Below, piece after piece: positions 9,441 to 45,837 of a stretch of 64,000 nucleotides of DNA. The stretch covers positions 211,336-275,335 of the forward strand of contig CAZOZL010000002.1 of NCBI GenBank assembly GCA_964584305.1, in the 5' to 3' direction. A model generated the notes under the pieces. The model made no database searches, had not been told where the DNA came from, and saw only the letters and a list, made by a program, of their open reading frames with translations. Origin of the DNA: an uncultured Burkholderiales bacterium (GTDB lineage: Bacteria > Bacteroidota > Bacteroidia > UBA8524). How positions within the stretch are numbered: position 1 is the first letter of the stretch; each line of letters starts with the position of its first letter. The translations under genes and the position numbers were made by a program.

Positions 9441-9467
9441 TTAAAAAATATCGGTAGCAGGTAAGTA

Positions 9468-10430: not shown

Positions 10431-10460
10431 CGTCTTAAATTTCTTAAAACAGCTTTAAAA

Positions 10461-11501
10461 CTATTTCTTTTTAAGTTTAGTTAAGTCCCTTGTCTCGTAA
10501 ATGCGCTCTATAATATCTACTACTTTCAACCCCTCTAAAGCATTAGCGGTAATAGTATCCTTCCCGTTAAGTGTATTCACCACATTCTCAATCACATAGT
10601 GGTGGTTTGCCGCACTGCCCTTAAATGGTCCATAATCATTAGGCGGGTTAGTAGGTGCTAACTTTGGTATTTCATAGTTTTCTATATGGCAGTACTCAAT
10701 CTCGTTCATGTATTGCCCCCCCACTTTATAACTTCCTTTACTACCCACTACGGTAATGCTACTTTCCATATTGGTCTCGTAAATAGAAGTAGAAAAGTTG
10801 ATGCAGCCTATGCCCCCGTTTACAAACTCAAAATTTACCACTCCGCTATCTTCAAACTCGGTAGTGTTAGCATGGTTAAAGTCTTTAAAAATGGCTTTTA
10901 TATTTTTTATATCGCCAAATACCCAATACATAATATCTACAAAGTGGCTAAATTGGGTAAACAAAGTACCCCCGTCAAGGTTTAGTTTTCCTTTCCATCC
11001 ATCCACTTTATAGTAACGGCTATCTCTATTCCAATAGCAGTTTACTTGTACCATTAGCACATCGCCAATAGTCCCTTCACTCACTACTTTTTTCATCCAC
11101 TTACTTGGAGGGCTGTATCGGTTTTGTTTCACCACAAATACTTGTTTCGAAACATTAAGAGCTTTAAAAATTACACTCTCACACTCTGCCTTGCTTAAAC
11201 CCATTGGTTTCTCTATCACTACATGGCTGCCATTGTCTAATGCCATTAATGCCTGTGAACAATGAAAACCATTTGGCGTAGCAATATTTAATACATCTAC
11301 TTTTATATCTGACGCAAAAAACTCCTCAATGGAGTTAAAAAAGGGAACTCCAGCAGGATATAAATCATGTTCTTTTGCCTTTGGGTCTATATCTATAATT
11401 GCAGCCAATTCAGACCCTTCATACTCATTTATTATAGTAGCGTGCCTGCGCCCAATATGCCCAAACCCCGATACCGCAAATTTTATATTAGCTTTTTGCA
11501 T
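10461..11501 (-). CDS. Gfo/Idh/MocA family NAD(P)-dependent sugar oxidoreductase
   Basis: N-terminal Rossmann fold (FAVSGFGHIGRRH) and the EKP motif (VVIEKPMG) typical of the family. Confidence 0.85.
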   Translation of the reverse strand: MQKANIKFAVSGFGHIGRRHATIINEYEGSELAAIIDIDPKAKEHDLYPAGVPFFNSIEEFFASDIKVDVLNIATPNGFHCSQALMALDNGSHVVIEKPMGLSKAECESVIFKALNVSKQVFVVKQNRYSPPSKWMKKVVSEGTIGDVLMVQVNCYWNRDSRYYKVDGWKGKLNLDGGTLFTQFSHFVDIMYWVFGDIKNIKAIFKDFNHANTTEFEDSGVVNFEFVNGGIGCINFSTSIYETNMESSITVVGSKGSYKVGGQYMNEIEYCHIENYEIPKLAPTNPPNDYGPFKGSAANHHYVIENVVNTLNGKDTITANALEGLKVVDIIERIYETRDLTKLKKK

Positions 11502-12651
11502 ACGTTTTGCTAAATCTCTTTTTTAAAAAATCTTTTAATTGTGTAGGCCAATTCTTATCCATACACGGTTGCTCTATTAGCTTGAAAAAAACGGCTGACA
11601 CTGTCAACAACCCAATAAGGGCAACACCAAAATTAACCACTATACTAAGCACAAAATTACTTATTGGTATAAGACTCATGCCTTTCATAACTGCAAACAA
11701 TACAGGGTAATGTAACAAGTATATGGTATAACACATACCGCCCACTATCACAATAAACTCACGTGTAAAAATATAGTTAAAAACAAAACCTCTAAAAACA
11801 GCCATAAATAAGCCAAATACACCAATATCAAAATAGATGCGCTCATACTTAACAGTATCAGGATGGAAACTAAATAGCAATACCAAAGATATTGCCCCCA
11901 CCACATCCCACAAATAGGCTTTCTTTATTTTTTTTAATCCAAAAAGAAATACATCAACAAAGGCGAAACCCACTAAAAAGCTGTGTATATAATTGATAAT
12001 GGATTTATGCAGGTGATACTCACGCAAATCTGCTAATGTATAAGGAACTACAAAATCTAATATTAGTATAGTGGCTACTACTAATATACGCCTGCGGGTA
12101 TGGTTTTTTATAAAAAGAACTGACGATATAAGCGGTGCTAATAAATAAAACTGCACCTCCGTTTCTAAACTCCAAGTAACAGGATTTATGGGGTTGAACT
12201 CGCTAAATATAAAAAAATGAACATAGAAAATGCCTGCAACAAAATCATCTAATAAGCTAAATACACTCTCATTAAAAAACAGTACATATAGTACAAACAG
12301 TATTACTAAAGATATTATATAAGGTGGTTCTAACCTTGTGAGCCGCCTTATGAAATAGTTTTTTATATTCACCTTTCTACCTTCTGCCAAATAGTACTTG
12401 GCAAAGGGCAAACCCAGTATAAACCCACTAATAGCAAAAAAAACATCTACTCCTAAACCACCTTGCGTAAAAAGGTGATGAATAAATGAATCTAAATAGC
12501 CTTGCGGAATTATATCGGCATATACCCTTTTATAGTTGGTATTGGTATGTAGAAATATGACCGTTATTATGGCTACAAAACGTAACCCATCTATTTCAGG
12601 AATGAAATTGTTGGTAGAAGTTACTCTTCGAAACGATTTTAAACTAAGCAC
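11488..12651 (-). CDS. Acyltransferase family 3 (OafA/OatA-like) membrane O-acyltransferase
   Basis: EIDGLRFVAI...FLH motif and about 10 TM helices, 387 aa. Confidence 0.8.
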   Translation of the reverse strand: MLSLKSFRRVTSTNNFIPEIDGLRFVAIITVIFLHTNTNYKRVYADIIPQGYLDSFIHHLFTQGGLGVDVFFAISGFILGLPFAKYYLAEGRKVNIKNYFIRRLTRLEPPYIISLVILFVLYVLFFNESVFSLLDDFVAGIFYVHFFIFSEFNPINPVTWSLETEVQFYLLAPLISSVLFIKNHTRRRILVVATILILDFVVPYTLADLREYHLHKSIINYIHSFLVGFAFVDVFLFGLKKIKKAYLWDVVGAISLVLLFSFHPDTVKYERIYFDIGVFGLFMAVFRGFVFNYIFTREFIVIVGGMCYTIYLLHYPVLFAVMKGMSLIPISNFVLSIVVNFGVALIGLLTVSAVFFKLIEQPCMDKNWPTQLKDFLKKRFSKTYAKS

Positions 12652-13555
12652 TAAGCGGGGTATCTATAAAAGAGTTTGAAGTCCAGTCTATTTCTTTTCG
12701 TGCCTTATCATCAGCAAAAGTAAGCGTGGAGGTTATTTTTTTATACTGCCTTGTTTTGAGTGGAAATTTAGGAATAAAACTTCCAAATATTGCCACTGTT
12801 TGTGCTACAAAAGCAGGAATTTTAATTTTTACTTTAGTATTGATTTCATCAGCCATTTTATCCTCTATTTGAGCAAAAGTAGGATGTACACCATCCGTTA
12901 GATTATACTCGCCCGATTGTGTTTTACTAAACAACGTAGGAATAAAATTAGCCACATCACTTGCCAACACTATCGATTTTTTTGCCTCTCCCCTGCCAAT
13001 TCTAAAATAGTAGCCTTTTTTAAGGGCTTTTATCATACTGCCTAAGTTACCAGGTGGATTTGCCCCCCCCAATAAAGGTAAACGAAGGTTAAAATAATTT
13101 ATCCCTTGAGGTTTGCACCATTCAGCTATTTTTTCTTCGGCTTTTATTTTGCTTTGCCCATAAGGGTCGGCAGCGTTTAATGGATGAGCCTCCGTAATAT
13201 TTTCACCACTATCTACCCCATATACAGCAACAGAACTTATAAATATTATGGCTTGTGGAATATTATTGCTGTTTTCTAAAGCCCTTAGTAAATTCTCTGT
13301 TCCTCCCAAATTTACATCCCAAAAGGCTTGTTTTTGTTCTTCGGTTTTTGGAATACTGTGCGCCTTGCCCGCCGCATGAAGCACCGCCACATATTTCCCT
13401 TTTAGTTCAGGAATTTCTTTACTCAAATCGCAAGTAATATCATTGCCTTCGCCTGCCAAACCGATAGTTTCTATCTCGTATCCAGCATTAAGCAAACCTT
13501 GTTTAAGGTAGTTGCCTAAAAAACCTCCTGCACCTGTAACTAATACTTTTGGCAA
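12644..13555 (-). CDS. NAD-dependent epimerase/dehydratase (extended SDR)
   Basis: VLVTGAGGFLGNYL glycine-rich motif and the SSVAVYG region. Confidence 0.8.
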   Translation of the reverse strand: MPKVLVTGAGGFLGNYLKQGLLNAGYEIETIGLAGEGNDITCDLSKEIPELKGKYVAVLHAAGKAHSIPKTEEQKQAFWDVNLGGTENLLRALENSNNIPQAIIFISSVAVYGVDSGENITEAHPLNAADPYGQSKIKAEEKIAEWCKPQGINYFNLRLPLLGGANPPGNLGSMIKALKKGYYFRIGRGEAKKSIVLASDVANFIPTLFSKTQSGEYNLTDGVHPTFAQIEDKMADEINTKVKIKIPAFVAQTVAIFGSFIPKFPLKTRQYKKITSTLTFADDKARKEIDWTSNSFIDTPLSA

Positions 13556-13627
13556 TTCTTTTTTTGCTTTTATCTTGTTAGCCTTTAGCTACGGAGATTA
13601 CCCATATCAAAGACTAAATGCAGTATT

Positions 13628-14266
13628 TTACTCCATTACCCAACGCATTACCTCAAAGGCTTCTGCGTACTGTGTGCCAATTTGCACCCCTCTTGCTCGG
13701 GCAAGCGAGGTTATAAAATCAGCTTTCATATAATCTCTATGGCTTTGCGATTTGTATTCGCCTAATGCCTCCACTTTGCTATCTATATGGCGTTGCTCCA
13801 ATTTCACAAAGCATTGTGTATTAAAGGTAAGATTGTTCCAAATAAGCTCGTAGCCTAAAAGGGTAGTGGTTTTAAAAGCCCTGCGCCCTTCACTGGCAAT
13901 AGTGCTATGATCTTGGTGTATATCGCCCAAGGTGGGCATAAACACAGCATCAAAAGTCTGTGTTTTACTAATTTTTATTAGCTCTTCTAATATTTCTTGG
14001 CGCACATAGTTTAGTTTACGCACCTCATAGTCAAATATTAAAAGGTTTTCAGCAGGAATACCCAATTTTTGAGTAGCTGCTTTTACTTCTTGTTTTAAAA
14101 TATCTTTCGGATACCCATCAGGCACAGATTTTTCAGCAGTAGAAAATGCAGCATACCAAACGTTTGACCCGTTTTCTATTAGCTTGGCTATTGTACCGCC
14201 CGCCCCTAATTCTCCATCATCGGTATGCGGTGCTAAAACAAGTATATTTTTAAGATTGGTTAACAA
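13628..14266 (-). CDS. PIG-L/LmbE family N-acetylglucosaminyl de-N-acetylase
   Basis: The PHTDDGELG motif (HPDDE type) and a downstream H-x-D-H motif (DIHQDH). Confidence 0.8.
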   Translation of the reverse strand: MLTNLKNILVLAPHTDDGELGAGGTIAKLIENGSNVWYAAFSTAEKSVPDGYPKDILKQEVKAATQKLGIPAENLLIFDYEVRKLNYVRQEILEELIKISKTQTFDAVFMPTLGDIHQDHSTIASEGRRAFKTTTLLGYELIWNNLTFNTQCFVKLEQRHIDSKVEALGEYKSQSHRDYMKADFITSLARARGVQIGTQYAEAFEVMRWVME

Positions 14267-14363
14267 TTTTGCTATTGGTTGGTGGTATTTAGCCTTTAGT
14301 TCGTGTTATAATAGCTAAGGAATAAAGGTTTCCTAAATAGTTCATTAAACAATGACGAAAATA

Positions 14364-15575
14364 TTAATTAAACAGTTCTGCGTAACGGTCTGCCAAGTTT
14401 TCTATACTGTGAAATTTTTTTACGTAAACACTTCCTTTTGCTCCCATTTCTGCACGTTGTTCGGGTGTTATTGCTTTTAACTGTAATACCCCTTCTTTTA
14501 TTGTCTCAGCAGAATCAGGAGTTACTATTATACCACAGCCCGACATTTCTACGGGGTCTTTTATCAGGTTATTACTATCTAATATTGGTTTTTCAGCCAG
14601 CATATAATCAAAAAATTTATTTGCTGATACTCCATGCTCAAATAGGGGTGTGTTGTTTCGTCCTACAAAACACGCATCAAAAAACTTGAGCATATTTTGT
14701 ACTTGGTTTTTCTTGATTTTTGAGATGAAAGTAATGTTTCCAAAATCTTTGCTGGTTTCAACCAGTTGCTCTTTTAGGTACCCATCACCCACCACTACAA
14801 AGTGAATATCTTTATGGTTTTTTAGCAGCCCTGCTGCATCAACAAAATACTCTAAAGCATTTGCCAAGCCTATTGTGCCTGTATAGCCTATTACAAATTT
14901 ATCTTTTGGAATATCTTTTGTAATTTCTTGAGGCAAAGGTTCATCAACCAATTGGTTTGCACTTAACCCATTAGGAATATATCTAAACTTCTCGGGCTTG
15001 CCCGAAATGGCATCAATATATTTATTTGCATTAGGCAATAACGATACTATATAATCGGCTTTTTTATAGCCAAACTTTTCTACCCAAGCCAATAGCATTA
15101 TAAATGGATGACTTTTTTTATAACCCGCCAAATACATGGGAGTTAAAGGCCATAAATCTCTAATTTCAAATATCAATCGTTTTGCATTGAATTTTTTTCT
15201 TAACCTATGCCCTGTAAGAATAGGAAATATTGGCATTGAGGATACTACAATATAATCAGGCTTGCCCAATTCTTTTGCCGAAAGGAACAAGCACCGCCAT
15301 GCAAACACCATCATGCTCCAAAATCGTTTAATGCTTTGCCCTTTATATACAGGTACTTTTACCCAACAAAAGGTGCGCCCGTCTACATCCTCGTAATTAT
15401 ACTTATTAGGTGCATATGGAAGATTATTAAAAACATGGTTGTATGAGCCTGAAATAATTTTTACCTCATAGCCTTTTTTTATCCAGTATTCACTGAAATA
15501 GAAATGACGCTCGCCCCAACCCGATGTGGGTGTTCCTGCAAATTGATTAATTATCCAAACTACTTTGCTTGCCAC
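14364..15575 (-). CDS. GT4 glycosyltransferase, WbuB-like (L-FucNAc-type transferase family)
   Basis: N-terminal QFAGTPTSGWGERHFY, characteristic of WbuB-like GT4 enzymes. GT-B C-terminal domain. Confidence 0.8.
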   Translation of the reverse strand: MASKVVWIINQFAGTPTSGWGERHFYFSEYWIKKGYEVKIISGSYNHVFNNLPYAPNKYNYEDVDGRTFCWVKVPVYKGQSIKRFWSMMVFAWRCLFLSAKELGKPDYIVVSSMPIFPILTGHRLRKKFNAKRLIFEIRDLWPLTPMYLAGYKKSHPFIMLLAWVEKFGYKKADYIVSLLPNANKYIDAISGKPEKFRYIPNGLSANQLVDEPLPQEITKDIPKDKFVIGYTGTIGLANALEYFVDAAGLLKNHKDIHFVVVGDGYLKEQLVETSKDFGNITFISKIKKNQVQNMLKFFDACFVGRNNTPLFEHGVSANKFFDYMLAEKPILDSNNLIKDPVEMSGCGIIVTPDSAETIKEGVLQLKAITPEQRAEMGAKGSVYVKKFHSIENLADRYAELFN

Positions 15576-15579
15576 TATT

Positions 15580-16671
15580 CTATTTTTTGTTGTGATATTG
15601 TATCAGATGCTCGCACATATTGTGTGCCGCTGTTCCGCCACCATATAATTCTGCGGTTTTATGAAAAGTTTTGCCCAAATATTCGTTTGCCGCAGTAATA
15701 ATCTTATCTCCATCAGCACCTACAATGGTATTGTAGCCATTGCTTATCAACTCTACCCACTCTGTCTCATCACGTAGGGTAATGCAGTATTTATTAAAAA
15801 AGTAGGCTTCTTTTTGTAGCCCTCCACTATCTGTCATTACCAGTTTACACTCGGCAATTAGTTGTAGCATATCAAAATATCCCACGGGGTCTATAATGGT
15901 AAATTCAACGGCTATACCCTTGCTTTTTAATATTTTAGCAGTACGTGGATGTAAAGGTACTACTACTTTGGTGGTAGTGTTAATAGTGTTTAAAGCACTC
16001 ACAATACTTTTTAGCCTTGTCTCATTGTCTGTATTTTCGGCACGGTGAATAGTGCCTAAAACAAACTCGCCTTTAGTTAAACCTAAATCGCTAATAATGG
16101 TGGACACCTTATCTGATTTTTCTTTGTAAAAAATGGCTGTATCCTGCATTAAATCACCAGAAAGAACATAGGTGGTATCTATATTTTTGTAGCCTTCTTT
16201 GTTAAGATTATCTATTGCTGTTTGTGTAGGGCAATATAAAATATCGCTAATTCTGTCAGTAAGTATTCGGTTTACCTCCTCGGGCATACGCATATTAAAA
16301 CTACGCAAGCCTGCCTCAATATGTATTACTTTTATATGCAATTTTTTTGCTGCCAATGCCCCTGCAATAGTACTGTTGGTATCACCATACACCATTACAT
16401 AATCGGGCTTTTCATCTTGAAGTATTTTTTCTATTCCTTCTAGCATTTGCCCTGTCATAGCACCGTGTGAAAGCCCATGAATATTAAGGTTATAATGGGG
16501 TTGAGGTATCTCCATTTCTTCAAAAAACACGTCCGACATATTTTTATCGAAATGTTGCCCTGTATGTATTATTACCTCACAAATATCGCTTCTATATTCT
16601 TGAAATTTTCTTGACAGTGCTGCTGCTTTAACAAACTGAGGACGTGCGCCTACAATGGTTATAATTTTCAA
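15580..16671 (-). CDS. UDP-N-acetylglucosamine 2-epimerase, non-hydrolysing (WecB/FnlC/Cap5G-like)
   Basis: N-terminal VGARPQFVKAA, HTGQHFD and DSGG motifs. Confidence 0.9.
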   Translation of the reverse strand: MKIITIVGARPQFVKAAALSRKFQEYRSDICEVIIHTGQHFDKNMSDVFFEEMEIPQPHYNLNIHGLSHGAMTGQMLEGIEKILQDEKPDYVMVYGDTNSTIAGALAAKKLHIKVIHIEAGLRSFNMRMPEEVNRILTDRISDILYCPTQTAIDNLNKEGYKNIDTTYVLSGDLMQDTAIFYKEKSDKVSTIISDLGLTKGEFVLGTIHRAENTDNETRLKSIVSALNTINTTTKVVVPLHPRTAKILKSKGIAVEFTIIDPVGYFDMLQLIAECKLVMTDSGGLQKEAYFFNKYCITLRDETEWVELISNGYNTIVGADGDKIITAANEYLGKTFHKTAELYGGGTAAHNMCEHLIQYHNKK

Positions 16672-16678
16672 AATATTG

Positions 16679-17431
16679 TTACTTATTAAGTAGTTGCTCT
16701 ACTTTATTTTGATAATATGAGTGCATACGGTACCATTTTTTTCCCTCGTTAGCAGCGTGTTGTTGAGGGGTAATTTTACCTTCCTCATTCAACATTACCG
16801 TTTTACCTGCCATACGAATTACTCGGTCGAAGGCATACTCGCGAGCATCAAGCAAAGTTTTCTTTCCGCTTATATCTATTTCTTCTTCCAGCCAAATAGA
16901 TCCAGAGTCTATACCTGTATCTATTTGGTGAATAGTGCCATATACTTTTTCTTCATTGCAAATAGCCCACTCTACCACATTCATGTTTTTAAACATTGGT
17001 AGCCTGCCTGCGTGAGCATTAAGAATAACTAAGCCTGGTATTTCTATCACACGTTTTCTAAAAATACCTGCACCACAATTTATAAGATACTTTATACCCA
17101 GTTGTTTAATTTGTTTTATGATCTCATCACTATTAAGTTTAGAAACGGATATAGTATTGGGTATAGGTATATTTACTTCTTCTTGTGAGAATGATTTTTT
17201 ATTACCCGAAAACTTCTTGAATTGAGGTAACAAAAACTCTTTAAAAAAAGAGAGTTTGTATTTCCTAAGCTCTTTTTTAAGCCTATCGGTAGGTTTTACA
17301 TATATAAGATGCTTAGGCTGTAACCCAACATCTCTAAACCCCACTTGTGCCGATTTCAGAAAATTACCCCTTGGGTTGATGGTAATATAAGCTATCTTAT
17401 CTGATAGTTCTTTTAATTGCTCGTTAGTCAA
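16679..17431 (-). CDS. Formyltransferase-fold (Formyl_trans_N) protein, candidate sugar N-formyl/N-acyl transferase
   Basis: Catalytic-triad-like N-x-H (ILNAHAGRLP) followed by HQIDTGIDSGSIW (Asp of the N/H/D triad), as in FMT/PurN/ArnA-N. Confidence 0.55.
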   Translation of the reverse strand: MTNEQLKELSDKIAYITINPRGNFLKSAQVGFRDVGLQPKHLIYVKPTDRLKKELRKYKLSFFKEFLLPQFKKFSGNKKSFSQEEVNIPIPNTISVSKLNSDEIIKQIKQLGIKYLINCGAGIFRKRVIEIPGLVILNAHAGRLPMFKNMNVVEWAICNEEKVYGTIHQIDTGIDSGSIWLEEEIDISGKKTLLDAREYAFDRVIRMAGKTVMLNEEGKITPQQHAANEGKKWYRMHSYYQNKVEQLLNK

Positions 17432-18638
17432 GGTTTGTGTGTTTTTTAATTAGCATCATTAAATCGATATAGTATTTTGTAGCCCACGATGGGTATTTAA
17501 GTGGGCAATACATACCCCAAATTGGATATGACCCTGTAATACCACCACTACGGTACTCACCTACTGCATTTAAATCTTGTGTATAGGCTAAAAAATCAGC
17601 TAATTTAAGTGCCGCATTTACATAGCGTTTATCATTTGTAAGCTCATACAGGCGGAAGAAAATAATACCTAATTGTGCATTACCTGTAAGGCAAGAGTAG
17701 TTAGCTCCTTTTTTCCAATCTTTATAAAACCGCCCAGGCATTATATTAGTAATTTCAGCTTTGTGTAATAAATGGTCTGCGGCAAGTTTACCTGCTTGTA
17801 CATATTTATCTTCTTTTAGGTTTAATCCTGTTTCTATTAAACCATCAATAGTATAAGCAATGGTGTGCAATACGGGTGCATCGTTATTTAAAAGTGTATT
17901 ATCCGCCATGTCAAACCAACCATTTTCATGTTGGTTTGCTAATACAAAATCACCGTTTTTACGGCACGCTTCTGCATACTTCTCATCTTTTGTAATAAGG
18001 TATAATTCAGACATTGGTGCAGTTACATATGTATCGTACACACGTTTCATTTGCTTAAAGTTGGTAGATGTCCAGCTACCGTCTTCGTCTTGGGTACTTA
18101 CCACCCAGTCCGCAGAGCGTTTTGCTGCCTCTAAATATTTTTCGTCTTTGGTTTCGTTATAAGAGCTTATCATACCTCTTATAACTTGCCCAGTATTAAA
18201 TACTACTGATGGTTTTCCATCTCCTTCGTATTGTCCTTCCCAGCCACCATCTTCATGCTGAATTCCCAATTCCCAATCGGCCATGCGTATAGCACGTTTT
18301 TTTAAATCTTCATCATTGTAATGGTGTGCTGTTTCCCACGCTGTTGGAATAATATATCCTGTTACTTCGGGGTAGCCTGTTGTCCATCTGTAATATTCAT
18401 AACACCCTACACCGCCTGAACCTACTTTGTCTTGTGAGTTTTTAATCCATGTAAGTCCTTTTTTAATCAGACTGTCATATGTTAAGTTGTTCTTTTTTAC
18501 ATAGTCGTTCCATTTTGGTCCACTATTTACACTCCAAAAATTTCTTAACAGTACTGACGCATTTGCTGGCTTAAAAAAACTGAAGAAAAGAGGAATTAAT
18601 TTTCCTGTGTGGTTTTTAATTAATTTAAAGGTATTCAC
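17424..18638 (-). CDS. alpha/alpha-toroid repeat protein with terpene-cyclase/prenyltransferase-like QxxDGxW repeats; function unknown
   Basis: Repeats QHEDGGWEG and TQDEDGSWTS are spaced as in squalene-cyclase/prenyltransferase alpha-alpha barrels. There is a hydrophobic N-terminus. This is not a family expected in glycan loci. Confidence 0.4.
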   Translation of the reverse strand: MNTFKLIKNHTGKLIPLFFSFFKPANASVLLRNFWSVNSGPKWNDYVKKNNLTYDSLIKKGLTWIKNSQDKVGSGGVGCYEYYRWTTGYPEVTGYIIPTAWETAHHYNDEDLKKRAIRMADWELGIQHEDGGWEGQYEGDGKPSVVFNTGQVIRGMISSYNETKDEKYLEAAKRSADWVVSTQDEDGSWTSTNFKQMKRVYDTYVTAPMSELYLITKDEKYAEACRKNGDFVLANQHENGWFDMADNTLLNNDAPVLHTIAYTIDGLIETGLNLKEDKYVQAGKLAADHLLHKAEITNIMPGRFYKDWKKGANYSCLTGNAQLGIIFFRLYELTNDKRYVNAALKLADFLAYTQDLNAVGEYRSGGITGSYPIWGMYCPLKYPSWATKYYIDLMMLIKKHTNLD

Positions 18639-18663
18639 TGTTTATAGTGCTTGGTTTGTTTTA

Positions 18664-19995
18664 CTAAAGAATTTTGCTCACAACAATTTGTGGTTTGCCT
18701 GATGGGCTTGGTGGAATATTGTCTTTTTTAAGGTAGTTTATTTTTAGTTCGCCTTCACTTACGTGTGTCCTAATTTCAGCATCAATCTCTTTTAAAGAGT
18801 CTTGATCAAAGCTAGGCGAGGGAATATACTCAAAATCTATTTCGTATTGTTTTTCTTGCACAATTCTAAATTGAGCAACATCATCACGCTTACCCATAAT
18901 TGCTGTAAAGAAATGAACTATAAGCGTTTTACCACTTGCTGTTTTTACAATATCAGTATCTCGCCCTATTACTCTTTTTATTAGTGGATATGCTAATGTA
19001 TTCGCATCACTAGCTTGATGTTCTGAAAGCTCCATTAAATCGCCAATTTTATAGCGTACTAATGGCATATAATTATTTTCTAAACCAGTAATAATAGCAT
19101 GCCCCATTTCACCATTAGGAACATTGTTATTATCATCATCTAATATCTCAACATGCACGTAGTTGCTAAGTAAATAGTAATTGTCATCATGAGCTATAAA
19201 ACCAACTGTAAGCCCTTCGTTAGATCCATAGGTTTCGCATACTTTACACTTAAACTGACTTTCTATTAGATATTTATAATGACTAAACATTTTATCTCCA
19301 AAAGAGATAGCTGCCTTAAAAGTGATGTTTAAATTATACTTTTTTGCTACTTGTGCATAGGTATATATACCCGATGCATAGCCCACGAAGTATACATTGT
19401 TTTCTTTGTTATTATACTTTTTTAGTACACCTAGTACTTCTTCTTCTGTAAGATTAAAGGCTAACTGGTAGTCTACCCTAAAGAATAAATCTTTAATTTT
19501 TTTTATTAAAGACCTTTTCTTAGTCATACCTAGTTGTAGGGTAGCACTACCAATACGGTAACCTGTATCTTCCCATATAAAGGTATTTATAGCTCTTAAT
19601 TTTGATAGTGCCTCATTGGGTAAAAATACTTTGCCTTGCACACCTGATGAACCACTGCTGTATAATGTATTTATCTTCTCACCAGTAGTGTTTACAACAT
19701 GAAACTGGTCTAGGTTAGCAATTATTGTTTTCTTATCAACTATAGGAAATTGCTTTAGAATCTCATTAGGGTTGCCACTTGAAAAATCTATATCTAGCTT
19801 TTGATAATAAGGAACTTTTTGATGCGCCAGTTTTAAATTAGCTAACAGTTTTGTTTTCTGTAACTCTTCAAGCTCGATTTTACTTTTTGAACCTTCTTTA
19901 CGAAAATTATTTAGTTGTTTTATATAAGAAGTTTTTGTTAGTGCATCTCCTATGGGAAGAATAACTTTCTCAAGAATGAAATTCCTTAACATCAA
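18664..19995 (-). CDS. CapK-like adenylate-forming enzyme (phenylacetate-CoA ligase / F390 synthetase family)
   Basis: AMP-binding P-loop YSSGSSGVQGK and a C-terminal subdomain. This family is known from capsule loci (Cap5K/Cap8K). Confidence 0.75.
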   Translation of the reverse strand: MMLRNFILEKVILPIGDALTKTSYIKQLNNFRKEGSKSKIELEELQKTKLLANLKLAHQKVPYYQKLDIDFSSGNPNEILKQFPIVDKKTIIANLDQFHVVNTTGEKINTLYSSGSSGVQGKVFLPNEALSKLRAINTFIWEDTGYRIGSATLQLGMTKKRSLIKKIKDLFFRVDYQLAFNLTEEEVLGVLKKYNNKENNVYFVGYASGIYTYAQVAKKYNLNITFKAAISFGDKMFSHYKYLIESQFKCKVCETYGSNEGLTVGFIAHDDNYYLLSNYVHVEILDDDNNNVPNGEMGHAIITGLENNYMPLVRYKIGDLMELSEHQASDANTLAYPLIKRVIGRDTDIVKTASGKTLIVHFFTAIMGKRDDVAQFRIVQEKQYEIDFEYIPSPSFDQDSLKEIDAEIRTHVSEGELKINYLKKDNIPPSPSGKPQIVVSKIL

Positions 19996-20024: not shown

Positions 20025-21071
20025 TTACTTTTTTGCAGCTTTAGCTACAACTCTTTCTACAGCATTAAACCATAAATGTTTAACACTCTTTTCCCAGTCT
20101 AGTTTCTCTACTTTTTCTCTCCCTGCCTTAGATAATTTTTCCACTAAATCGGAGTTTTCAACTAACTCACTAATTCTATCAGCCATCATTTGTGGGTTTT
20201 GCTTTTCTGTAAGTAACCCATTCTCACCATCTTGAATTAAATAAGGTATCCCACCAACGTTGGTGCTTACAATTGGTAAACCCAATGCCATAGCTTCGAT
20301 AACACTAAATGGCGTATTATCGAAGTTGGTAGTATTAATAAATACATTAAAGTCTTCTGATGCTTTGCCCCATACATCTTGCGATACAGAACCTGGCATT
20401 TTTGCCTTATCCTCTAAGCCATACTTCTTAATGGTGTCTTCTGTTTTATGCCAGCTATCATCAAGGTGAGGACCATACATAGTAAGTTCAGCATCTGGGT
20501 ATTTTTTTAGTAATAGGTTTAGCATCTCTACTGCCATTGCAGGGTTGTAGATTTCTTTAAATGCTCTTACAAAAAGAACCTTCGGTGTAATTTCACTACG
20601 TTGCTTAAAGGTATATTTCTCAATATTAACTGGGTTAGGGATAAGCTCTACCGTAAAGCCAGCATTGGAAAACTCTGTAAGCAAATAGTCTGAAGGAGCC
20701 ACATTTAATGAAGCATTATTGAAGATTATTTTACAAAATTTTTTATAGTTCTTTAATCTCCAAGGCAAGTTGCCTCCCTGTAGGTTAGTGATATAAGGTA
20801 AGCCCATTACCCTACAAAGTTGGGTAACTACAAGAGCGTAATAAAAGTTTTGAGAACTAAACACATCCACAATTAAAAAATCGGCTTTGCGACCATACTT
20901 TATTGTATGCCAACCCATATCTAATAATCGTAGCAGTTTATTGTCCTTGGTAGATGTTAGAGTCATGTCGTAACGCTCTACCAATCTACCACCAACATGG
21001 TCTACAATAGATAAATAGTTACGTCTTTGTAATCTATTACCTACGTGTATGCCTCTTATCTTACGCTCCAT
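20025..21071 (-). CDS. GT4 glycosyltransferase
   Basis: GT-B fold with the EX7E-type motif (GGIPYLIQDGENG). Confidence 0.85.
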   Translation of the reverse strand: MERKIRGIHVGNRLQRRNYLSIVDHVGGRLVERYDMTLTSTKDNKLLRLLDMGWHTIKYGRKADFLIVDVFSSQNFYYALVVTQLCRVMGLPYITNLQGGNLPWRLKNYKKFCKIIFNNASLNVAPSDYLLTEFSNAGFTVELIPNPVNIEKYTFKQRSEITPKVLFVRAFKEIYNPAMAVEMLNLLLKKYPDAELTMYGPHLDDSWHKTEDTIKKYGLEDKAKMPGSVSQDVWGKASEDFNVFINTTNFDNTPFSVIEAMALGLPIVSTNVGGIPYLIQDGENGLLTEKQNPQMMADRISELVENSDLVEKLSKAGREKVEKLDWEKSVKHLWFNAVERVVAKAAKK

Positions 21072-21097: not shown

Positions 21098-22039
21098 CTA
21101 CTTTTTTAGGTATGTGTGTTTGTATATTTTTTGCAAACCCTCTTTTAGTAAAGTGGTTGGCTTCATACTTGTATGAGATTCTAATTTCTCAGAAGTACCC
21201 ACACGTCTTTCAACTTCATAATCATAGCGATTTTTTGGTGCTTCGATAAATGTTACTTCAGACTGTGAGTTTGTTACTGCTTTTATTTCGTATGCTAAAT
21301 CTAAAATGCTCCACTCGTTCTCATTAGAAATATTAAAAATTTCAAATCCCTTAACCTTTCCCATTAGCCTAATACAAGCTTCTACAGTATCTTCTATAAA
21401 GGTAAAATCACGCGTTTGCCCACCATTACCAAATACGGTAATGGGTTTATTGTTCAATGCTTGCTCAAAAAAACGAGGAATTACCATACGATTATCTTGC
21501 TTATAACCATAAACATTAAAGAAACGTAGGGCTACTGAGTTGATACCCTTTTCTTCATAAAGAGCAGAAAGGTAAATTTCGTTATAACGTTTTGCCATTG
21601 CATAACTGGTTTTAGGATCAACTAGCATTTCTTCATCTACTGATTTTTCCATAGCAGAATGCCCGTAAATACCACTAGTTGAAGCGTATAAAATTTTCTT
21701 AACCCCATTTATTTGTGCTGCTTTACTAATATTTCTCAGCCCAATAGTTTCAACTTCCATAGTTTCAACAGGATTATCGGCTACAATATCTACCCCAAGT
21801 ATTGCTGCAAAATGATATATTATTTCACATCCCTTTGAAGCTTTTAAAACGGTATCATAATCTCTCACATCGCCTTGAATAAACTCTATTCCGCGCAAAA
21901 CATCAGAATCCAACTTGTTGCCTCTCAACAAATTATCTAGAACGGTAACACTGTATCCTTTCTCAATTAATCTTTTAACTAGGTTACTGCCAATAAAACC
22001 TGCACCACCAGTAACTAATATTTTATTTATTTTTTCCAT
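21098..22039 (-). CDS. NAD-dependent nucleotide-sugar epimerase/dehydratase (extended SDR)
   Basis: ILVTGGAGFIGSNL motif and YxxxK (YAMAK). Confidence 0.85.
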   Translation of the reverse strand: MEKINKILVTGGAGFIGSNLVKRLIEKGYSVTVLDNLLRGNKLDSDVLRGIEFIQGDVRDYDTVLKASKGCEIIYHFAAILGVDIVADNPVETMEVETIGLRNISKAAQINGVKKILYASTSGIYGHSAMEKSVDEEMLVDPKTSYAMAKRYNEIYLSALYEEKGINSVALRFFNVYGYKQDNRMVIPRFFEQALNNKPITVFGNGGQTRDFTFIEDTVEACIRLMGKVKGFEIFNISNENEWSILDLAYEIKAVTNSQSEVTFIEAPKNRYDYEVERRVGTSEKLESHTSMKPTTLLKEGLQKIYKHTYLKK

Positions 22040-22057
22040 TATAATTAATTTTTTATT

Positions 22058-22960
22058 TTATTTAAATTGACTTTGTATTATTTTTAACAATATTCTAAAA
22101 GGTGTATCGTGTTCATAAATTCCTATACGTGGAATTAGCATAGGATTGGTAGATTTTTTAATACTACCTGTTTGCAAAGTTACTCCATGGGTATAGTATT
22201 TACTAGCCGTAGTATATGTATTGCCTATATGTTTCGCACTACCATATGGGTAGCATATAAGGTATTGCTCTTCGCCTGTAACATTTTGTAGATATCTTTT
22301 TGATTCTTCAAACTCATACGCCAACTCTTCTTCAGTTTGCATATATAGTTTAGGGTGTGTAACTGTATGAGATTGAAATGAAAACAAATCATTCTCTGCA
22401 TACATTTTTATGACCTGCTCATCTATCACCTTATCAGCTTCAGCAGCTATATAGCCATTTAATTGGCTAATTTTTTCTACTTTACCCTCAATCACTTCTG
22501 TTTGGTCTTCATCCCAAACTAGTTCATTAATAAGGTTGCTTTTAAAAGTTAACTTCTCTGCCTTTTCTTTAAATATAACCTCTTTTCCGGTTTCGTCTTT
22601 ATACTTAAGCTTTTCGGTTGCTAATATCTTAACAATCTTTAGCGGCCATAAGGGTGTATTATCAATACTATATTTAGTAGGCACGAAAAACGTACATGGC
22701 AAGTTGTGTTTCTCTAATATTTGAGTAGCATTTACAAAATCTTCATAATAGCAATCGTCCATTGTTAATGCTATAGCAAATGTTGGTTTTGCATTAATGC
22801 TATCATCAGCCAAAGCCTTAAAAGATTTTACAGGGGCTAGTTTTTTAAAGAATATAACCTGTGCATCAAATTTTTGTTTGGTAATGCGGTGGTAGCAAAG
22901 TACCACTGGTTTGTTAGTGATTTTTAAAAAAAAAAATATTATGTGCGTTATTAAGTCCAT
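22058..22960 (-). CDS. Polysaccharide deacetylase (NodB homology domain, CE4)
   Basis: TMDDCY (TFDDG-type) motif and HTVTHP (H-x-x-x-H) motif. Confidence 0.75.
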   Translation of the reverse strand: MDLITHIIFFFLKITNKPVVLCYHRITKQKFDAQVIFFKKLAPVKSFKALADDSINAKPTFAIALTMDDCYYEDFVNATQILEKHNLPCTFFVPTKYSIDNTPLWPLKIVKILATEKLKYKDETGKEVIFKEKAEKLTFKSNLINELVWDEDQTEVIEGKVEKISQLNGYIAAEADKVIDEQVIKMYAENDLFSFQSHTVTHPKLYMQTEEELAYEFEESKRYLQNVTGEEQYLICYPYGSAKHIGNTYTTASKYYTHGVTLQTGSIKKSTNPMLIPRIGIYEHDTPFRILLKIIQSQFK

Positions 22961-22975
22961 TAAATAACTTAAAAA

Positions 22976-23728
22976 TTATTTGTTTATGTATAATTTCTCG
23001 TACTGCTCTTTTGTCCAATAAGATTTATATCTATTTTTAACTTCACCCCCATCATCTTCAAGTTTTTCAACTCCTTCAGTTATTAATTTTCCCAATATTT
23101 CACACTCATTTTTAACTATCCAATACATATAACCTGAATGATGATTTATCAAATCATCTTTCTCAATTCTTTTTCTTACGATGGGTTTACCAGTATCAAT
23201 ACCGTAATCAATATAATGTAGTGTAGTGCCTAACCACTCATACTTTTTATAATATAGAGCCCAAAATGTAGGACTAACTCCTCTTATTCCTGGTAAAATT
23301 CCTGGGTGAAAGTTTAAAATTGGAATACCAATATCAATAATTTTATCTGGAATAATACCCACTCCTGTTTGAAAAATATAATCAGGGGTTTCTTTTTTTA
23401 TGAAATTAATTAAAGAGCTTGTAAAACCTGGGAAGTGTTTATCAACTCCTTTAGTAATAGGTATATCAAGTTTTTTTATTGCTTCATCTTCTATTTCTAA
23501 AGATTGGCTAACATAATCACCTAATTGACTAATGTTCTTCCTTCTTTTTATAAACCAAGTAATACCGTTTTTCTTAACGAGCTTCAGGTTTCTTATTATT
23601 CTCTGAAAGGTTAGCATATTACCTGAAATATCTATAATTATAACTTCTGCACCTGCATCAAACATTTTTTGCATTTGCGTTTTGTATCTTAATCCTGCAG
23701 CAGTATTTGTTAAAGCTATTATCTTCAT
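22976..23728 (-). CDS. Formyltransferase-fold protein (second copy), candidate sugar N-formyl/N-acyl transferase
   Basis: LNFHPGILPGIRG (N-x-H...LP...RG) and YIDYGIDTGKPI (Asp motif). Confidence 0.6.
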   Translation of the reverse strand: MKIIALTNTAAGLRYKTQMQKMFDAGAEVIIIDISGNMLTFQRIIRNLKLVKKNGITWFIKRRKNISQLGDYVSQSLEIEDEAIKKLDIPITKGVDKHFPGFTSSLINFIKKETPDYIFQTGVGIIPDKIIDIGIPILNFHPGILPGIRGVSPTFWALYYKKYEWLGTTLHYIDYGIDTGKPIVRKRIEKDDLINHHSGYMYWIVKNECEILGKLITEGVEKLEDDGGEVKNRYKSYWTKEQYEKLYINK

Positions 23729-23730: not shown

Positions 23731-24954
23731 TTATCTATATCTGTTTTGCAACAGATTATAAATATAATCTGTTGATTTCTCCAAAGTATTCTCTCGCAAT
23801 AATGCTTGGGAGTTTTTTACTAAAGTTTTTTGGAGTTCACTATTACCATCTAATTCTCTAATTTTTACCAATAAGTCTTCTAAGCTATTTTGCTCAAATA
23901 TTAATGCCTCTTGATTAGTGAAAAATTGTCTTATACCTAAATAACTAACACAAATGGTTGGTATACCAGCAGCAAAACCTTCCCAAAGAGTACGTGGATA
24001 CCCTTCATTTGTGCAGGTATTGAATATGTAAATATCAGATTGATTAAAAACCTCTACCTTTTTGTTATTATGTATCTCGCCTCTAAAGTTTATATAATCT
24101 TTTACATCTAACTCATCAATAACACTGTTTATCAAACTCATGTAAGAAGGGACTGCTGTTCCTCCATATACGTCTAGTATAGCTTCACGCCCACCTTTTC
24201 TAAGTTTGCTAACTGCTTTTATTAGCAATTCAACATTCTTTTCAGGGTCTAACCTGCTATAAAATATTAAGCGCAAAGGTCCCTCGTGTTGTTCCCTATC
24301 TCTATAAACAATCTCGCTATCTCTAATTAAACCTTTTGATATAAGATTAAACCTGTTGTCTTTAATTTTATAAGACGACTCCATTGCGGGATTATTACCC
24401 AAAACAATATAACTATACTTGTTTACCAATGCACGTGTTAAGTAGTTGGTAGTATATATACGCAATACGTTTTTAAAGAACTCTCTAATAGCTCCATTTA
24501 AACCCGCAGGGCGATAAATTTCTTTTGGTGATTTGGTTAGTATACCTACCAATAAGCTCGCAATTTTACAATTGGGGTGTACTGCTTTTGCCACAGGGTT
24601 TTGTTGTGGCGTAGGCCCTTGTATTATAATATAATCAAGGTTTTTAGTGCCGTTATAAATGGCTTTTTTATCTAAGCCAATTCCAAAACCTTTAATACGA
24701 TGAGGTGCTTGCTTTCCTATATCTACTATTGAAGATTTTGCAGTTAGTATATGGTAAGATTTGGGTACATTATCACTACTTATAGTACCTCCATTATTTA
24801 AAAAACAAGTAAACTCTTCGCACAACTCTCCAAAACGTTCAGCCCAAATAGCTATATCAAAAGCAACATATTGTTGCCCCTTTTCGTCAGTTAAAAAATG
24901 TCCGTGATTAAAGTAGCCTATTTTCATTTTTTTAGTTACCTGATAGCCATTCAT
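23731..24954 (-). CDS. GT4 glycosyltransferase
   Basis: C-terminal NEGYPRTLWEGFAAGIP (EX7E motif). Confidence 0.75.
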   Translation of the reverse strand: MNGYQVTKKMKIGYFNHGHFLTDEKGQQYVAFDIAIWAERFGELCEEFTCFLNNGGTISSDNVPKSYHILTAKSSIVDIGKQAPHRIKGFGIGLDKKAIYNGTKNLDYIIIQGPTPQQNPVAKAVHPNCKIASLLVGILTKSPKEIYRPAGLNGAIREFFKNVLRIYTTNYLTRALVNKYSYIVLGNNPAMESSYKIKDNRFNLISKGLIRDSEIVYRDREQHEGPLRLIFYSRLDPEKNVELLIKAVSKLRKGGREAILDVYGGTAVPSYMSLINSVIDELDVKDYINFRGEIHNNKKVEVFNQSDIYIFNTCTNEGYPRTLWEGFAAGIPTICVSYLGIRQFFTNQEALIFEQNSLEDLLVKIRELDGNSELQKTLVKNSQALLRENTLEKSTDYIYNLLQNRYR

Positions 24955-44544: not shown

Positions 44545-45837
44545 TTAAAGTCTTCCGTCAACTTGATTTCTATCTAAAAAACCTTTCACATCGTATATCA
44601 CACTTGTATCACCAGTCAAGTCGTTCAAATCTAATGATGCAAACTCATTGTGAGATACTGCTAATATGACGGTGTCAAATTTTTTGTTTACCCCATCCAA
44701 TGTTTTAATCGTATCATATCCATACTCGCGTTTCACCTCTACAGGCTCTGCCCAAGGGTCGTATATAGTTACATTGGTATGATACTCGTTTAATTCTGAA
44801 ATAATATCTACTACTTTGGTGTTACGAACATCAGGGCAGTTTTCTTTAAAAGTAAAGCCTAATAACAATACATCAGCGTCTTTTACTTTAATGTCTTTCT
44901 TCAACATTAATTTAACGACCTCATTGGCCACATGAGCACCCATACCATCATTTAACCGGCGACCTGCTAATATAATTTCAGGGTGATACCCTGTTGTTTG
45001 TGCTTTTTGTGCTAAGTAATAAGGGTCAACGCCTATACAGTGTCCGCCAACTAAACCTGGTTTAAATTTTAAGAAATTCCATTTAGTTCCTGCGGCTTCT
45101 AATACATCGTTAGTATCTATACCCAAACGGTTAAATATTTTTGATAGTTCATTTACAAAAGCAATGTTAATATCACGTTGTGAATTTTCTATCACTTTTG
45201 CGGCTTCTGCTACTTTTAATGTTGGTGCAAGGTGCGTACCTGCTACAATTACCGATTTATATAAATCATCAACTACTTTACCAATTTCAGGCGTTGAGCC
45301 TGCAGTAACTTTTAATATTTTAGTTACCGTGTGTTCTTTATCACCTGGGTTAATACGTTCAGGCGAGTATCCGCAATAAAAGTCTTCATTAAACTTCATT
45401 CCTGATACACGTTCTAACACAGGCACACACTCTTCTTCTGTAGCACCTGGATATACTGTTGATTCATAGATTACTATATCGCCTTTGTTTAATACTTTAG
45501 CTACTGTTTCACTTGCCTTGTATAAAGGGGTTAAATCAGGATGGTTATAGCTATCTACAGGTGTGGGCACAGTAATTATATATATATTACTGTCAGCTAT
45601 ATCTTGTACATCATAACTAAACCTAATATTAGAACCTGGCTCACAGTCTTCACCATTTATTACTGATTTTAAATAGTCATTAGTAACTTCTAATGTAGCA
45701 TCATGCCCACTGCTTAACTCGCTAATTCTATTTTGATTTATATCAAACCCAACGGTTTGATATTTTTTACCAAACTCAACGGCTAATGGTAAACCCACAT
45801 AGCCAAGTCCAATTATTGAGATTTTATGCTTATTCAT
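44545..45837 (-). CDS. UDP-N-acetyl-D-glucosamine / mannosamine 6-dehydrogenase (WbpA/WecC/TviB family)
   Basis: [14 protein letters not shown] Rossmann motif and catalytic Cys in GGHCIGVDP. Confidence 0.9.

Follow-up and report, generated by a model that had tools for sequence, protein, structure and literature searches.

In haloarchaeal N-glycan assembly, the soluble six-hairpin proteins Agl32 (VNG1058H) and AglQ epimerize or isomerize a uronic acid within a lipid-linked glycan, a prerequisite for its sulfation, methylation or glycosylation in later steps (PMC12624080, PMC13308652, PMC3827465). Both are AGE-like barrels lacking the catalytic residues of AGE and GlcE (PMC12624080, PMC13308652, PMC3827465), and their existence makes outdated the view, expressed in a sequence-only reading of the DNA described here, that such barrels have no recognized role in glycan synthesis. 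A second described system, the Wbp/Vim pathway for the T9SS linking sugar, employs the VimE deacetylase and the VimA FemAB-like aminoacyl transferase and, as described, includes neither a toroid protein nor a formyltransferase (PMC7468200). Rare sugar configurations, together with N-acyl and amide decorations, account for much of the antigenic and physical diversity of surface polysaccharides, and many of the responsible enzymes are still missing. Here we analyze a family of toroid proteins that points to a step of surface-polysaccharide synthesis not yet described in bacteria or archaea.

The 64-kb window, by which we mean the whole stretch of DNA analyzed, carries a Wza/Wzc/Wzy capsule-type locus in which a formyltransferase-fold protein (FMT), a six-hairpin toroid protein and a CapK-like adenylating enzyme are encoded together (Table 1). 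All three genes named in the sequence-only reading are present as minus-strand open reading frames, and its WbpA-like dehydrogenase is likewise confirmed as a TviB/WbpA-like enzyme; CE4 and FemAB-like genes also lie within the window. The same reading described three overlapping genes between glycosyltransferases. The FMT and toroid genes do overlap, by 8 nt, but the CapK-like gene ends 25 nt upstream of the toroid gene with no overlap; similarly, the upstream neighbor of the trio is a GT4 gene, but the first downstream neighbor, separated from the FMT gene by 7 nt, encodes a WecB-type epimerase, and a GT4 gene follows only after it. Public collections contain proteins identical to the 404-aa toroid and to the 250-aa FMT.

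Table 1. Features of the trio locus and related genes in the 64-kb window
Feature	Coordinates	Strand	Evidence
PIG-L/LmbE-type de-N-acetylase	13628..14266	-	
GT4 (WcaI-like) glycosyltransferase, following WecB downstream within one gene string	14364..15575	-	
WecB-type non-hydrolysing UDP-GlcNAc 2-epimerase	15580..16671	-	TIGR00236, 304.6 bits, above cutoff
Formyltransferase-fold protein (FMT), 250 aa	16679..17431	-	Pfam, PDB matches, N138/H140/D175
Six-hairpin (α/α)6 toroid protein, 404 aa	17424..18638	-	AlphaFold model, fold neighbors, conserved core
CapK/PaaK-like adenylate-forming enzyme, 443 aa	18664..19995	-	NCBIfam and PDB matches, motifs
GT4 glycosyltransferase, directly upstream of the trio	20025..21071	-	
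TviB/WbpA-like UDP-GlcNAc 6-dehydrogenase	44545..45837	-	572.6 bits

The AlphaFold model of the toroid is an (α/α)6 barrel (pLDDT 94) whose closest folds are AGE-superfamily sugar 2-epimerases and GH88 hydrolases, with squalene cyclases ranking lower, although these fold neighbors share just 9–16% sequence identity with it. By predicted fold, the toroid therefore appears nearest to the CE/AGE barrels, and the suggestion in the sequence-only reading of a glycan-modifying (α/α)6 enzyme pointed in the right direction. The repeats reported there are present as hairpin motifs QHEDGGW (127), QDEDGSW (183) and QHENGW (236). A universal core is formed by Y89, E91, Y95, Q127, Q151, Y201, H258, Y262, Q322, Y377, K388, D392 and six Trp residues. 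Alignment and model together place its polar members at inner-helix N-termini and in long loops that form the classical six-hairpin active-site face, with invariant Y201 and Y262 starting consecutive inner helices. H258 is the sole invariant histidine of the family, which is further marked by the motifs YPETTGYIIPT, HTIAYT and PxWGxY...PxWAxKY. Sequence analysis revealed no transmembrane segment and no signal peptide. The toroid is a cytoplasmic six-hairpin enzyme of a large uncharacterized family.

The proposed terpene-cyclase or prenyltransferase likeness of this protein extends no further than the repeated QxxDGxW hairpin motif. DxDD (D.DD) is absent from the whole 404-aa sequence and from the conserved family columns, alignment is confined to the hairpin motifs, and cyclases score structurally below sugar-active barrels, leading us to reject the toroid as a terpene cyclase. 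The Zn site of prenyltransferase β-subunits and LanC-like proteins is also missing from the toroid, which has no universally conserved Cys and a single invariant His, and no conserved metal site was found in the family alignment. A pathway in which a terpene-cyclase- or prenyltransferase-type toroid, CapK and FMT install an isoprenoid-derived or other non-canonical substituent can draw on the QxxDGxW repeats and on weak squalene-hopene cyclase profile matches, but it is already largely refuted and we consider it barely credible. A different reading is a GH88-, GH76- or PL-like hydrolase or lyase that trims polymer or controls its length as an ordinary EPS accessory. We judge this very improbable: the toroid has no signal peptide, its Pfam matches span one hairpin motif only (residues ~146–250), and its gene shows translational coupling, and in other loci fusion, to genes for cytoplasmic enzymes that depend on folate, SAM, PAPS or acetyl-CoA.

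Members of the AGE superfamily (cellobiose 2-epimerase, glucose 2-epimerase, N-acylglucosamine 2-epimerase and YihS) share 10–16% identity with the toroid, and searches returned no Pfam GlcNAc_2-epim and no NCBIfam AGE match to it. AGE/CE enzymes use two or three histidines (H184/H243/H374 in RaCE) and need a free reducing sugar, whereas the toroid combines one invariant His with a Tyr-rich core containing Lys and Glu and is unlikely to share that substrate requirement. GlcE relies on the catalytic constellation E499/Y500/Y560/Y578, and a profile alignment of the toroid with 4pw2 for this comparison spans generic hairpins only. The closest parallels are Agl32 and AglQ, which like the toroid are stand-alone, all-α six-hairpin proteins of ~350–400 aa encoded inside glycan-assembly clusters, and which find the same best structural matches of cellobiose 2-epimerase, AGE and GH88 (PMC12624080; PMC3827465). 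However, an AglQ fragment rebuilt from published mutagenesis primers (residues ~30–122) scores only 6 bits against the toroid family profile, on a generic hairpin, and we therefore regard these proteins as probable analogs, not homologs, of the toroid; the toroid family motifs are not evident in the fragment, and Agl32 and AglQ have no known transferase fusions.

The FMT matches Pfam Formyl_trans_N (PF00551; E=3.3e-9, 37.2 bits against a gathering score of 26.1), and its best PDB matches are sugar N-formyltransferases, with which its N/H/D residues align. The catalytic signature noted from sequence is indeed kept as N138, H140 and D175, invariant in the FMT subfamily alignment. FMT shares this triad with ArnA and the sugar N-formyltransferases FdtF, QdtF, VioF and WlaRD; every NCBIfam match of FMT falls far below its cutoff. 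An FMT gene is present in 36 of 88 toroid loci and lies immediately downstream of the toroid gene, usually overlapping it, in about 34 of 83; conversely, nearly all FMT-subfamily matches on long contigs have a toroid match on the same contig. The two proteins also occur as a single chain. A toroid–FMT fusion family of 650–750 aa comprises at least 120 sequence clusters, with both domains covered in 120 of the 120 matches listed and N/H/D invariant throughout, and the model of a fusion (pTM 0.92, ordered linker) predicts a rigid two-domain protein. These fusions surfaced only with the fusion protein itself as query; searching with FMT gave none because the k-mer prefilter reached only 83 matches. 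ArnA similarly joins a formyltransferase to a second domain of the same sugar pathway, but the partner in the toroid–FMT fusion is a six-hairpin barrel in place of the SDR decarboxylase of ArnA or an ankyrin domain. Together, these data establish the toroid and its downstream N10-formyl-tetrahydrofolate-type N-formyltransferase as a fixed unit.

The third gene is less constant. The CapK-like protein contains the P-loop SSGSSG, YGxxE, RYxxGD and a C-terminal GK, confirming the AMP-forming P-loop recognized from sequence together with the remaining adenylation motifs, and the window protein shares all of these motifs with 14 toroid-linked homologs. The same P-loop, YGxxE, RYxxGD and C-terminal catalytic Lys characterize PaaK-type ligases such as phenylacetate-CoA ligase, DdaG and CapK of COG1541. 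PDB matches are phenylacetate-CoA ligases, no Pfam match was obtained, and NCBIfam matches to PaaK-type AMP ligases all lie below cutoffs (48.7 bits for PaaK, where the cutoff is 646). Ten complete loci, divided between the phyla Bacteroidota and Pseudomonadota, show the order CapK>toroid>FMT, as does one more locus cut at a contig end. The trio is thus a conserved module, although its conserved functional unit is the toroid with FMT and the CapK-like gene is replaceable: the window protein is only 19–27% identical to the CapK-like proteins encoded in this slot in sister loci, and an AsnB-type amidotransferase or an AMP-ligase and ACP set stands in that place at other loci. An AsnB, CapK or AMP-ligase gene adjoins the toroid gene in 31 of 59 long loci. 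The CapK-like gene is therefore a swappable third slot. With the genes co-conserved and the identity of the toroid to its fold neighbors so low, the trio does not reduce to a familiar lyase or AGE epimerase among unlinked accessory genes, an outcome that the sequence-only reading had contemplated.

At 50% identity, the toroid family comprises ~900–2000 bacterial and archaeal clusters, nearly all of uncultured origin; it has no curated model and no characterized member, and none of its homologs was traced to a cultured bacterium whose glycan structure is known. Beyond FMT, the toroid domain is fused with its invariant core to GT4, GT2 and WecG/TagA glycosyltransferases and to AAC(3)-like, FemAB-like, methyltransferase, sulfotransferase and LicD partners, giving at least nine attached transferase types. 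Across the family, one barrel with one invariant pocket thus accompanies the transferase that acts on the sugar, whatever its type. Fusion to so many kinds of transferase means that the role of the toroid is not confined to formyl or amide chemistry. This breadth is also an argument that the toroid may be a non-epimerizing module that holds an undecaprenyl-diphosphate-linked sugar or glycan acceptor in its aromatic-lined cavity and presents it to the attached transferase. The donors of the fused enzymes differ while the acceptor class is shared, and the partners include TarA/WecG-type enzymes, which use Und-PP-GlcNAc as acceptor. A similar cavity accommodates polyprenyl diphosphates in prenyltransferase and terpene-cyclase barrels, sequence profiles weakly pick up squalene cyclases, and the six invariant Trp with Tyr, His and Lys would be well suited to bind an isoprenoid and a diphosphate. 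Against such a module, the structural neighbors of the toroid are sugar-active and terpenoid barrels score lower, invariant acidic E91 and D392 with three invariant Gln would be atypical of a site that binds diphosphate, the family is rare compared with widespread Und-PP-dependent pathways, and the protein appears soluble. On balance, we regard an acceptor-presenting role as unlikely.

WecB-like genes lie near 28 of 88 toroid loci, often at position −1, and wecB with a nucleotide-sugar dehydrogenase accompanies both toroid–FMT fusions and haloarchaeal homologs; a constant association with UDP-sugar 6-dehydrogenase is rejected, since only 6 of 88 loci have this gene within ±8 kb. Operons of Bacteroidales and related MAGs combine the toroid gene with VimE-like (DUF7033/CE4), VimA-like (FemAB) and WecB/WbpI-like genes, and AsnB-type amidotransferases resembling WbpS adjoin it at other loci. 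In many CapK/AsnB>toroid>FMT loci, none of the genes that might provide an amine (CE4, PIG-L or DegT) occurs within ±8 kb, and N-acyltransferases of three unrelated folds (FMT, AAC(3)-like and FemAB-like) are found next to the toroid or fused to it. Both observations would fit a new sugar de-N-acetylase whose coupled N-acyltransferase re-acylates the amine, forming an N-acyl exchanger analogous to eukaryotic NDST. We nevertheless consider this improbable, since the family has no conserved metal site, the window and many other loci already carry PIG-L or CE4 deacetylases, and GT2, GT4, methyl- and sulfotransferase fusions would be left unexplained; no amidase of this fold is known.

We tentatively favor the toroid as a sugar epimerase or isomerase that works reversibly and without a cofactor, its product being captured by the transferase attached to it. 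H258 with Y262, K388 and E91 are candidate acid/base residues, and the substrate may be a residue of HexNAc or HexNAc-uronic-acid type, presented either as a UDP-sugar or as an undecaprenyl-PP-linked unit. Its makers in the locus would be the WecB and TviB-like enzymes, the second of which supplies a 2-acetamido uronic acid. The coupled transferase would modify the epimerized product only and would therefore pull the equilibrium forward. In the window, N-formylation would be the trap, capturing a free amino group that the PIG-L or CE4 deacetylase has exposed. As a specificity cassette, the CapK-like enzyme could adenylate a carboxylate, in the simplest case the uronic acid C6, for amide formation; AsnB-type amidotransferases may perform the corresponding job in sister loci, and the flanking GT4 enzymes would build the modified sugar into the repeat unit. 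Agl32 and AglQ provide functional precedents for such an enzyme. In ArnA, formylation drives an unfavorable preceding step, and GlcE is paired with a 2-O-sulfotransferase. Several points weigh against epimerization: H258 is a single possible counterpart, by position only, to the two or three catalytic histidines of AGE/CE enzymes; AGE-type C2 epimerization needs a free reducing end, which nucleotide- and lipid-linked sugars do not have; the AglQ fragment lacks significant similarity to the toroid family profile; few toroid loci have a UDP-sugar 6-dehydrogenase gene close by; a heparinase II/III- or alginate-lyase-like protein accompanies the toroid in five Acidobacteriota loci and one haloarchaeal locus, and could itself be the uronate C5-epimerase there; and a conserved pocket with many transferase partners would equally fit a non-catalytic acceptor-binding module.

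Broadened to the whole family, the proposal becomes somewhat more speculative: the toroids may constitute a widespread and new epimerase family that acts on glycans or nucleotide sugars without a cofactor. Because the toroid reaction is reversible, its genes would have been hard-wired repeatedly, by overlap or fusion, to those of a trapping transferase (formyl-, acetyl-, aminoacyl-, methyl-, sulfo- or glycosyl-). If so, toroid and transferase would form a prokaryotic counterpart of the GlcE–sulfotransferase pairing in heparan sulfate synthesis and exemplify a design principle of general use for making rare sugars in L- or epi-configuration, such as L-guluronic-type HexNAc uronic acids. If the toroid is an epimerase or any other acceptor-specific catalytic module, its fusions would map which transferase acts on its product, aiding glycan structure prediction from sequence and providing candidates for missing epimerization steps and bifunctional enzymes for glyco-engineering.

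The firmly established, obligate toroid–formyltransferase unit and its swappable adenylating cassette correct the annotation of thousands of proteins, which currently carry misleading labels including 'prenyltransferase/squalene oxidase repeat', 'GH88' and 'formyltransferase family'. Literature searches on DUF7033, on a six-hairpin formyltransferase and on the CapK/FMT/cyclase combination returned nothing relevant. In haloarchaeal glycan clusters, toroid homologs adjoin a sulfatase-family gene, and the only two homologs in a plasmid collection are both haloarchaeal.

The trio lies within a polysaccharide locus of ~45 kb on the minus strand of the window (roughly 7.6–52 kb), which contains numerous GT2 and GT4 genes and also encodes a nonulosonic-acid pathway. 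All three open reading frames described in the sequence-only reading (16679–19995) are present, although they overlap only in part: the toroid and FMT genes share 8 nt, but a 25-nt gap separates the CapK-like gene from the toroid gene. Placement between glycosyltransferases likewise holds on the upstream side, where a GT4 gene adjoins the trio, but the first downstream gene is a WecB-type 2-epimerase that starts 7 nt after the FMT gene and is followed by a GT4 gene and then a PIG-L deacetylase gene. The sequence signatures noted for the two flanking proteins were confirmed. The FMT-like protein passes the Pfam Formyl_trans_N threshold, keeps the catalytic residues N138, H140 and D175, and has sugar N-formyltransferases as its top PDB sequence matches, and the CapK-like protein carries a complete set of AMP-forming adenylation motifs with weak PaaK-type matches.

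Features of the polysaccharide locus and its surroundings (window numbering)
Feature	Position	Strand	Remark
522-aa ORF	6020–7588	-	no Pfam/NCBIfam match; inside or at edge of locus
Exosortase-F-associated membrane protein	7639–8106	-	
Exosortase XrtF	8069–8641	-	TIGR04128, 121.7 bits against cutoff 90
PIG-L deacetylase	13628–14266	-	
WecB-type 2-epimerase	15580–16671	-	
FMT-like	16679–17431	-	
Toroid	17424–18638	-	404 aa
CapK-like	18664–19995	-	
GT4	20025–21071	-	directly upstream of trio
SDR epimerase/dehydratase	21098–22039	-	
CE4 polysaccharide deacetylase	22058–22960	-	
Second FMT-like	22976–23728	-	N/H/D conserved; 35% identity to first FMT over catalytic core
570-aa protein	24932–26644	-	Acetyltransf_6 (FemAB/VimA-like) domain; no NCBIfam match
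Wzy	27053–28267	-	
HisH-like partner of WbuX	34679–35326	-	
HisF-like partner of WbuX	35316–36068	-	
WbuX N-acetyl-sugar amidotransferase	36070–37275	-	356 bits
Wzx	38199–39638	-	
CMP-transferase	39646–40365	-	
NeuC-like 2-epimerase	41310–42467	-	
NeuB	42467–43468	-	
UDP-GlcNAc 6-dehydrogenase, TviB/WbpA-like	44545–45837	-	
187-aa ORF	45841–46404	-	no Pfam/NCBIfam match; inside or at edge of locus
Wzc	46559–49048	-	
Wza	49059–49859	-	
Tandem paralogue, 226 aa	62506–63186	-	65% identical to next; outside locus
Tandem paralogue, 200 aa	63264–63866	-	outside locus

The toroid carries QHEDGGW, QDEDGSW and QHENGW, which include the repeats noted earlier, but the terpene-cyclase likeness drawn from them did not hold. 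Pfam matches to C5-epim_C, Pec_lyase, GH88, SQHop_cyclase_C, GH127 and LANC_like all fall on one ~100-residue stretch, a helix-hairpin motif shared across the six-hairpin clan, and profile-to-PDB alignments to squalene-hopene cyclase and zebrafish glucuronyl C5-epimerase cover only these hairpins. With hairpin-only alignment and no DxDD motif in the toroid, we rejected a squalene-hopene-cyclase identity, and terpenoid chemistry is highly improbable; a trimming hydrolase or lyase is somewhat less so, but still very unlikely.

The toroid instead belongs to a well-defined but uncharacterised and misannotated six-hairpin family. A word-indexed search returned >1,600 homologues, and in an exhaustive search of 1.84 billion representatives clustered at 50% identity, 912 clusters reached E ≤ 1e-30 and 2,034 reached E ≤ 1e-10. 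Almost all members derive from MAGs, Flavobacteriaceae and actinobacterial toroids share ~50% identity, and megaplasmids of two cultured haloarchaea carry a toroid gene annotated as 'prenyltransferase/squalene oxidase repeat-containing protein'. Cultured carriers include Halobellus limi and Haladaptatus sp. QDMS2. Across an alignment of 122 standalone bacterial, fused and archaeal sequences, twelve polar residues (Y89, E91, Y95, Q127, Q151, Y201, H258, Y262, Q322, Y377, K388 and D392) and six tryptophans are conserved throughout, and the conserved residues map to the six long loops and to where the inner helices begin, on the face that usually holds the active site in six-hairpin enzymes. Conserved-residue analysis found no conserved Cys/His metal site in the family, and the pocket is predicted to be of a metal-free acid/base type; we consider a novel de-N-acetylase improbable.

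To follow the trio across genomes we assembled 88 toroid loci, 80 of them drawn from a set with a single genome for each species and the rest from metagenomes and plasmids (L-numbers denote individual loci). CapK>toroid>FMT is found again, in this order, in Bacteroidota (L004–L008) and Pseudomonadota (L066, L070, L075, L079, L081; L067 is truncated), demonstrating that the trio is co-conserved. The adenylating slot nevertheless varies: AsnB>toroid>FMT occurs in Acidobacteriota and other loci, toroid>AAC(3)-like in four loci, and actinobacterial toroids are surrounded by GT4 genes only. The window CapK-like protein shares only 19–27% identity with CapK-like proteins in the same slot, including those of L004–L008 despite toroids 68–87% identical to that of the window, a pattern that a specificity-determining cassette would show. 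The trio is thus a genuine conserved module, which we interpret as a glycan-tailoring enzyme module, but the CapK-like enzyme can be exchanged for others and counts as an accessory, and the emphasis moves from the threesome to the toroid family and its transferases.

Coupling of the toroid to FMT is close. An FMT-like gene lies directly downstream of the toroid, mostly overlapping it, in ~34 of 83 loci, 36 of 88 loci have an FMT, and on long contigs nearly all matches of this small FMT subfamily share the contig with a toroid match. In L082 the two form one 706-aa polypeptide; with this as the query, all 120 matches listed were 650–750 aa and covered both domains, with hosts in Planctomycetota, Alphaproteobacteria, Gemmatimonadaceae, Binatia and others. 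N/H/D is invariant in this fusion clade, and the fusion is predicted, at pTM 0.92, as a single rigid body with an ordered linker. MEO0478455.1 is a natural example of such a fusion. These fusions provide Rosetta-stone evidence that the window toroid and FMT act as a unit.

About one-fifth of the best 150 toroid representatives are multidomain. By Pfam, partners are GT4 on either side (ten cases), a C-terminal FMT (four), an N-terminal methyltransferase (three), an N-terminal GT2 (two), and, once each, N-terminal AAC(3), FemAB-like or sulfotransferase domains and C-terminal WecG/TarA or LicD-GT4; four partners have no assigned identity. Two giant DUF2341 proteins, P0400 (1457 aa, with a LamG-like, 3-keto-disaccharide hydrolase domain) and P0470 (1294 aa), may be extracytoplasmic versions. 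Nearly all multidomain toroids keep the core residues, E91, Y95, H258, Y262 and Q322 are invariant, and only P0400 and the representative P0449 lack K388 and D392. Partner donors differ (UDP-sugars, formyl-THF, acetyl-CoA, aminoacyl-tRNA, SAM, PAPS, CDP-choline) and what the partners share is a sugar or glycan substrate, so toroid function must concern that substrate and not formylation specifically. What stands out is a toroid family whose obligate partner, separate or fused, is a formyltransferase here and elsewhere any of many other transferases. That the toroid is an acceptor- or lipid-carrier-binding module is unlikely.

Among the readings weighed, the one that appears to explain most, which we propose tentatively and at somewhat below even chances, is that the toroid reversibly epimerises or isomerises a HexNAc- or HexNAc-uronic-type residue without a cofactor, and that the attached transferase traps the product. 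Sugar epimerases are among the fold neighbours of the toroid model, the predicted metal-free acid/base pocket speaks for such chemistry, and reversibility would give a reason for coupling to many different irreversible transferases. Precedent comes from Agl32 and AglQ, AGE-like barrels that are soluble and lack the catalytic residues of AGE and GlcE. They convert a uronic acid of a lipid-linked glycan by epimerisation or isomerisation and are needed for later sulfation, methylation or glycosylation (PMC12624080, PMC13308652, PMC3827465). The AGE-like barrel is alike, but a fragment of AglQ has no significant sequence similarity to the toroid family, a weakness of the model. Comparable pairings are the ArnB equilibrium pulled by ArnA formylation and GlcE paired with a 2-O-sulfotransferase; a possible lead for the CapK-like enzyme is the S. 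aureus type 1 capsule, whose GalNAcA is amidated with taurine and which has a CapK. Under the epimerase model, the target of FMT in the window would be a free amine that the PIG-L or CE4 deacetylase has exposed, and amidation of a carboxylate would fall to the CapK-like enzyme, the part that AsnB would play in sister loci.

At toroid loci the commonest biosynthetic neighbour is a WecB-like 2-epimerase, found in 28 of 88 and often placed at -1. Eight loci have WecG/TagA-type ManNAc(A) transferases, and wecB with a nucleotide-sugar dehydrogenase accompanies toroid-FMT fusion loci and both haloarchaeal loci; uronic-acid dehydrogenases seldom lie within 8 kb, which weakens the epimerase model. Carboxylate-activating enzymes (CapK, AsnB or AMP-binding) occur in 31 and N-acyltransferases in 36 of 59 long loci. 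Fourteen Bacteroidales loci (L018, L021–L023, L025, L029, L033, L038, L039, L041–L044, L058; ~8000–15000 of the locus) encode, in order, toroid, AMP-binding ligase, ACP, GNAT, AAC(3)-like, VimE-like (DUF7033/CE4) and VimA-like (FemAB) proteins, and may represent a variant linking-sugar pathway installing a carrier-protein-derived N-acyl group. The VimE-like and VimA-like neighbours tie some toroid operons to Wbp/Vim logic, in which the N-acyl groups of 2,3-diamino uronic acids are exchanged (PMC7468200). The Bacteroidales operon often sits next to dnaX, radC and wecB and away from large polysaccharide loci.

In both haloarchaeal loci the toroid directly follows a 'sulfatase' gene and directly precedes a conserved small ORF of 65–75 aa. 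A heparinase II/III- or alginate-lyase-family gene lies at position +2 from the toroid in L072–L074, L080 and L083, and at 10169–11923 in L087, giving two different toroid-type proteins per glycan cluster; the heparinase II/III-like loci are biosynthetic, from Acidobacteriota and Haladaptatus, and this protein could itself be the C5-epimerase, a further weakness of the epimerase model for the toroid. Within the window, WbuX and its HisF- and HisH-like partners form an acetamidino-forming module beside the NeuB, NeuC-like and CMP-transferase genes, so an acetamidino nonulosonic acid is a probable further product of the locus. The second FMT-like gene lies directly upstream of the CE4 and SDR genes, an arrangement that resembles ArnA/ArnD formylate-then-deformylate logic or else marks a second N-formyl sugar. 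The 570-aa protein might N-aminoacylate an amino sugar from aminoacyl-tRNA, as happens in the Wbp/Vim pathway. The XrtF and exosortase-F-associated genes form the downstream end of the locus and EpsH/EpsI exosortase genes occur in L085, a toroid-FMT fusion locus, hinting at a link between the sugar modifications of toroid-type loci and exosortase-type protein sorting.
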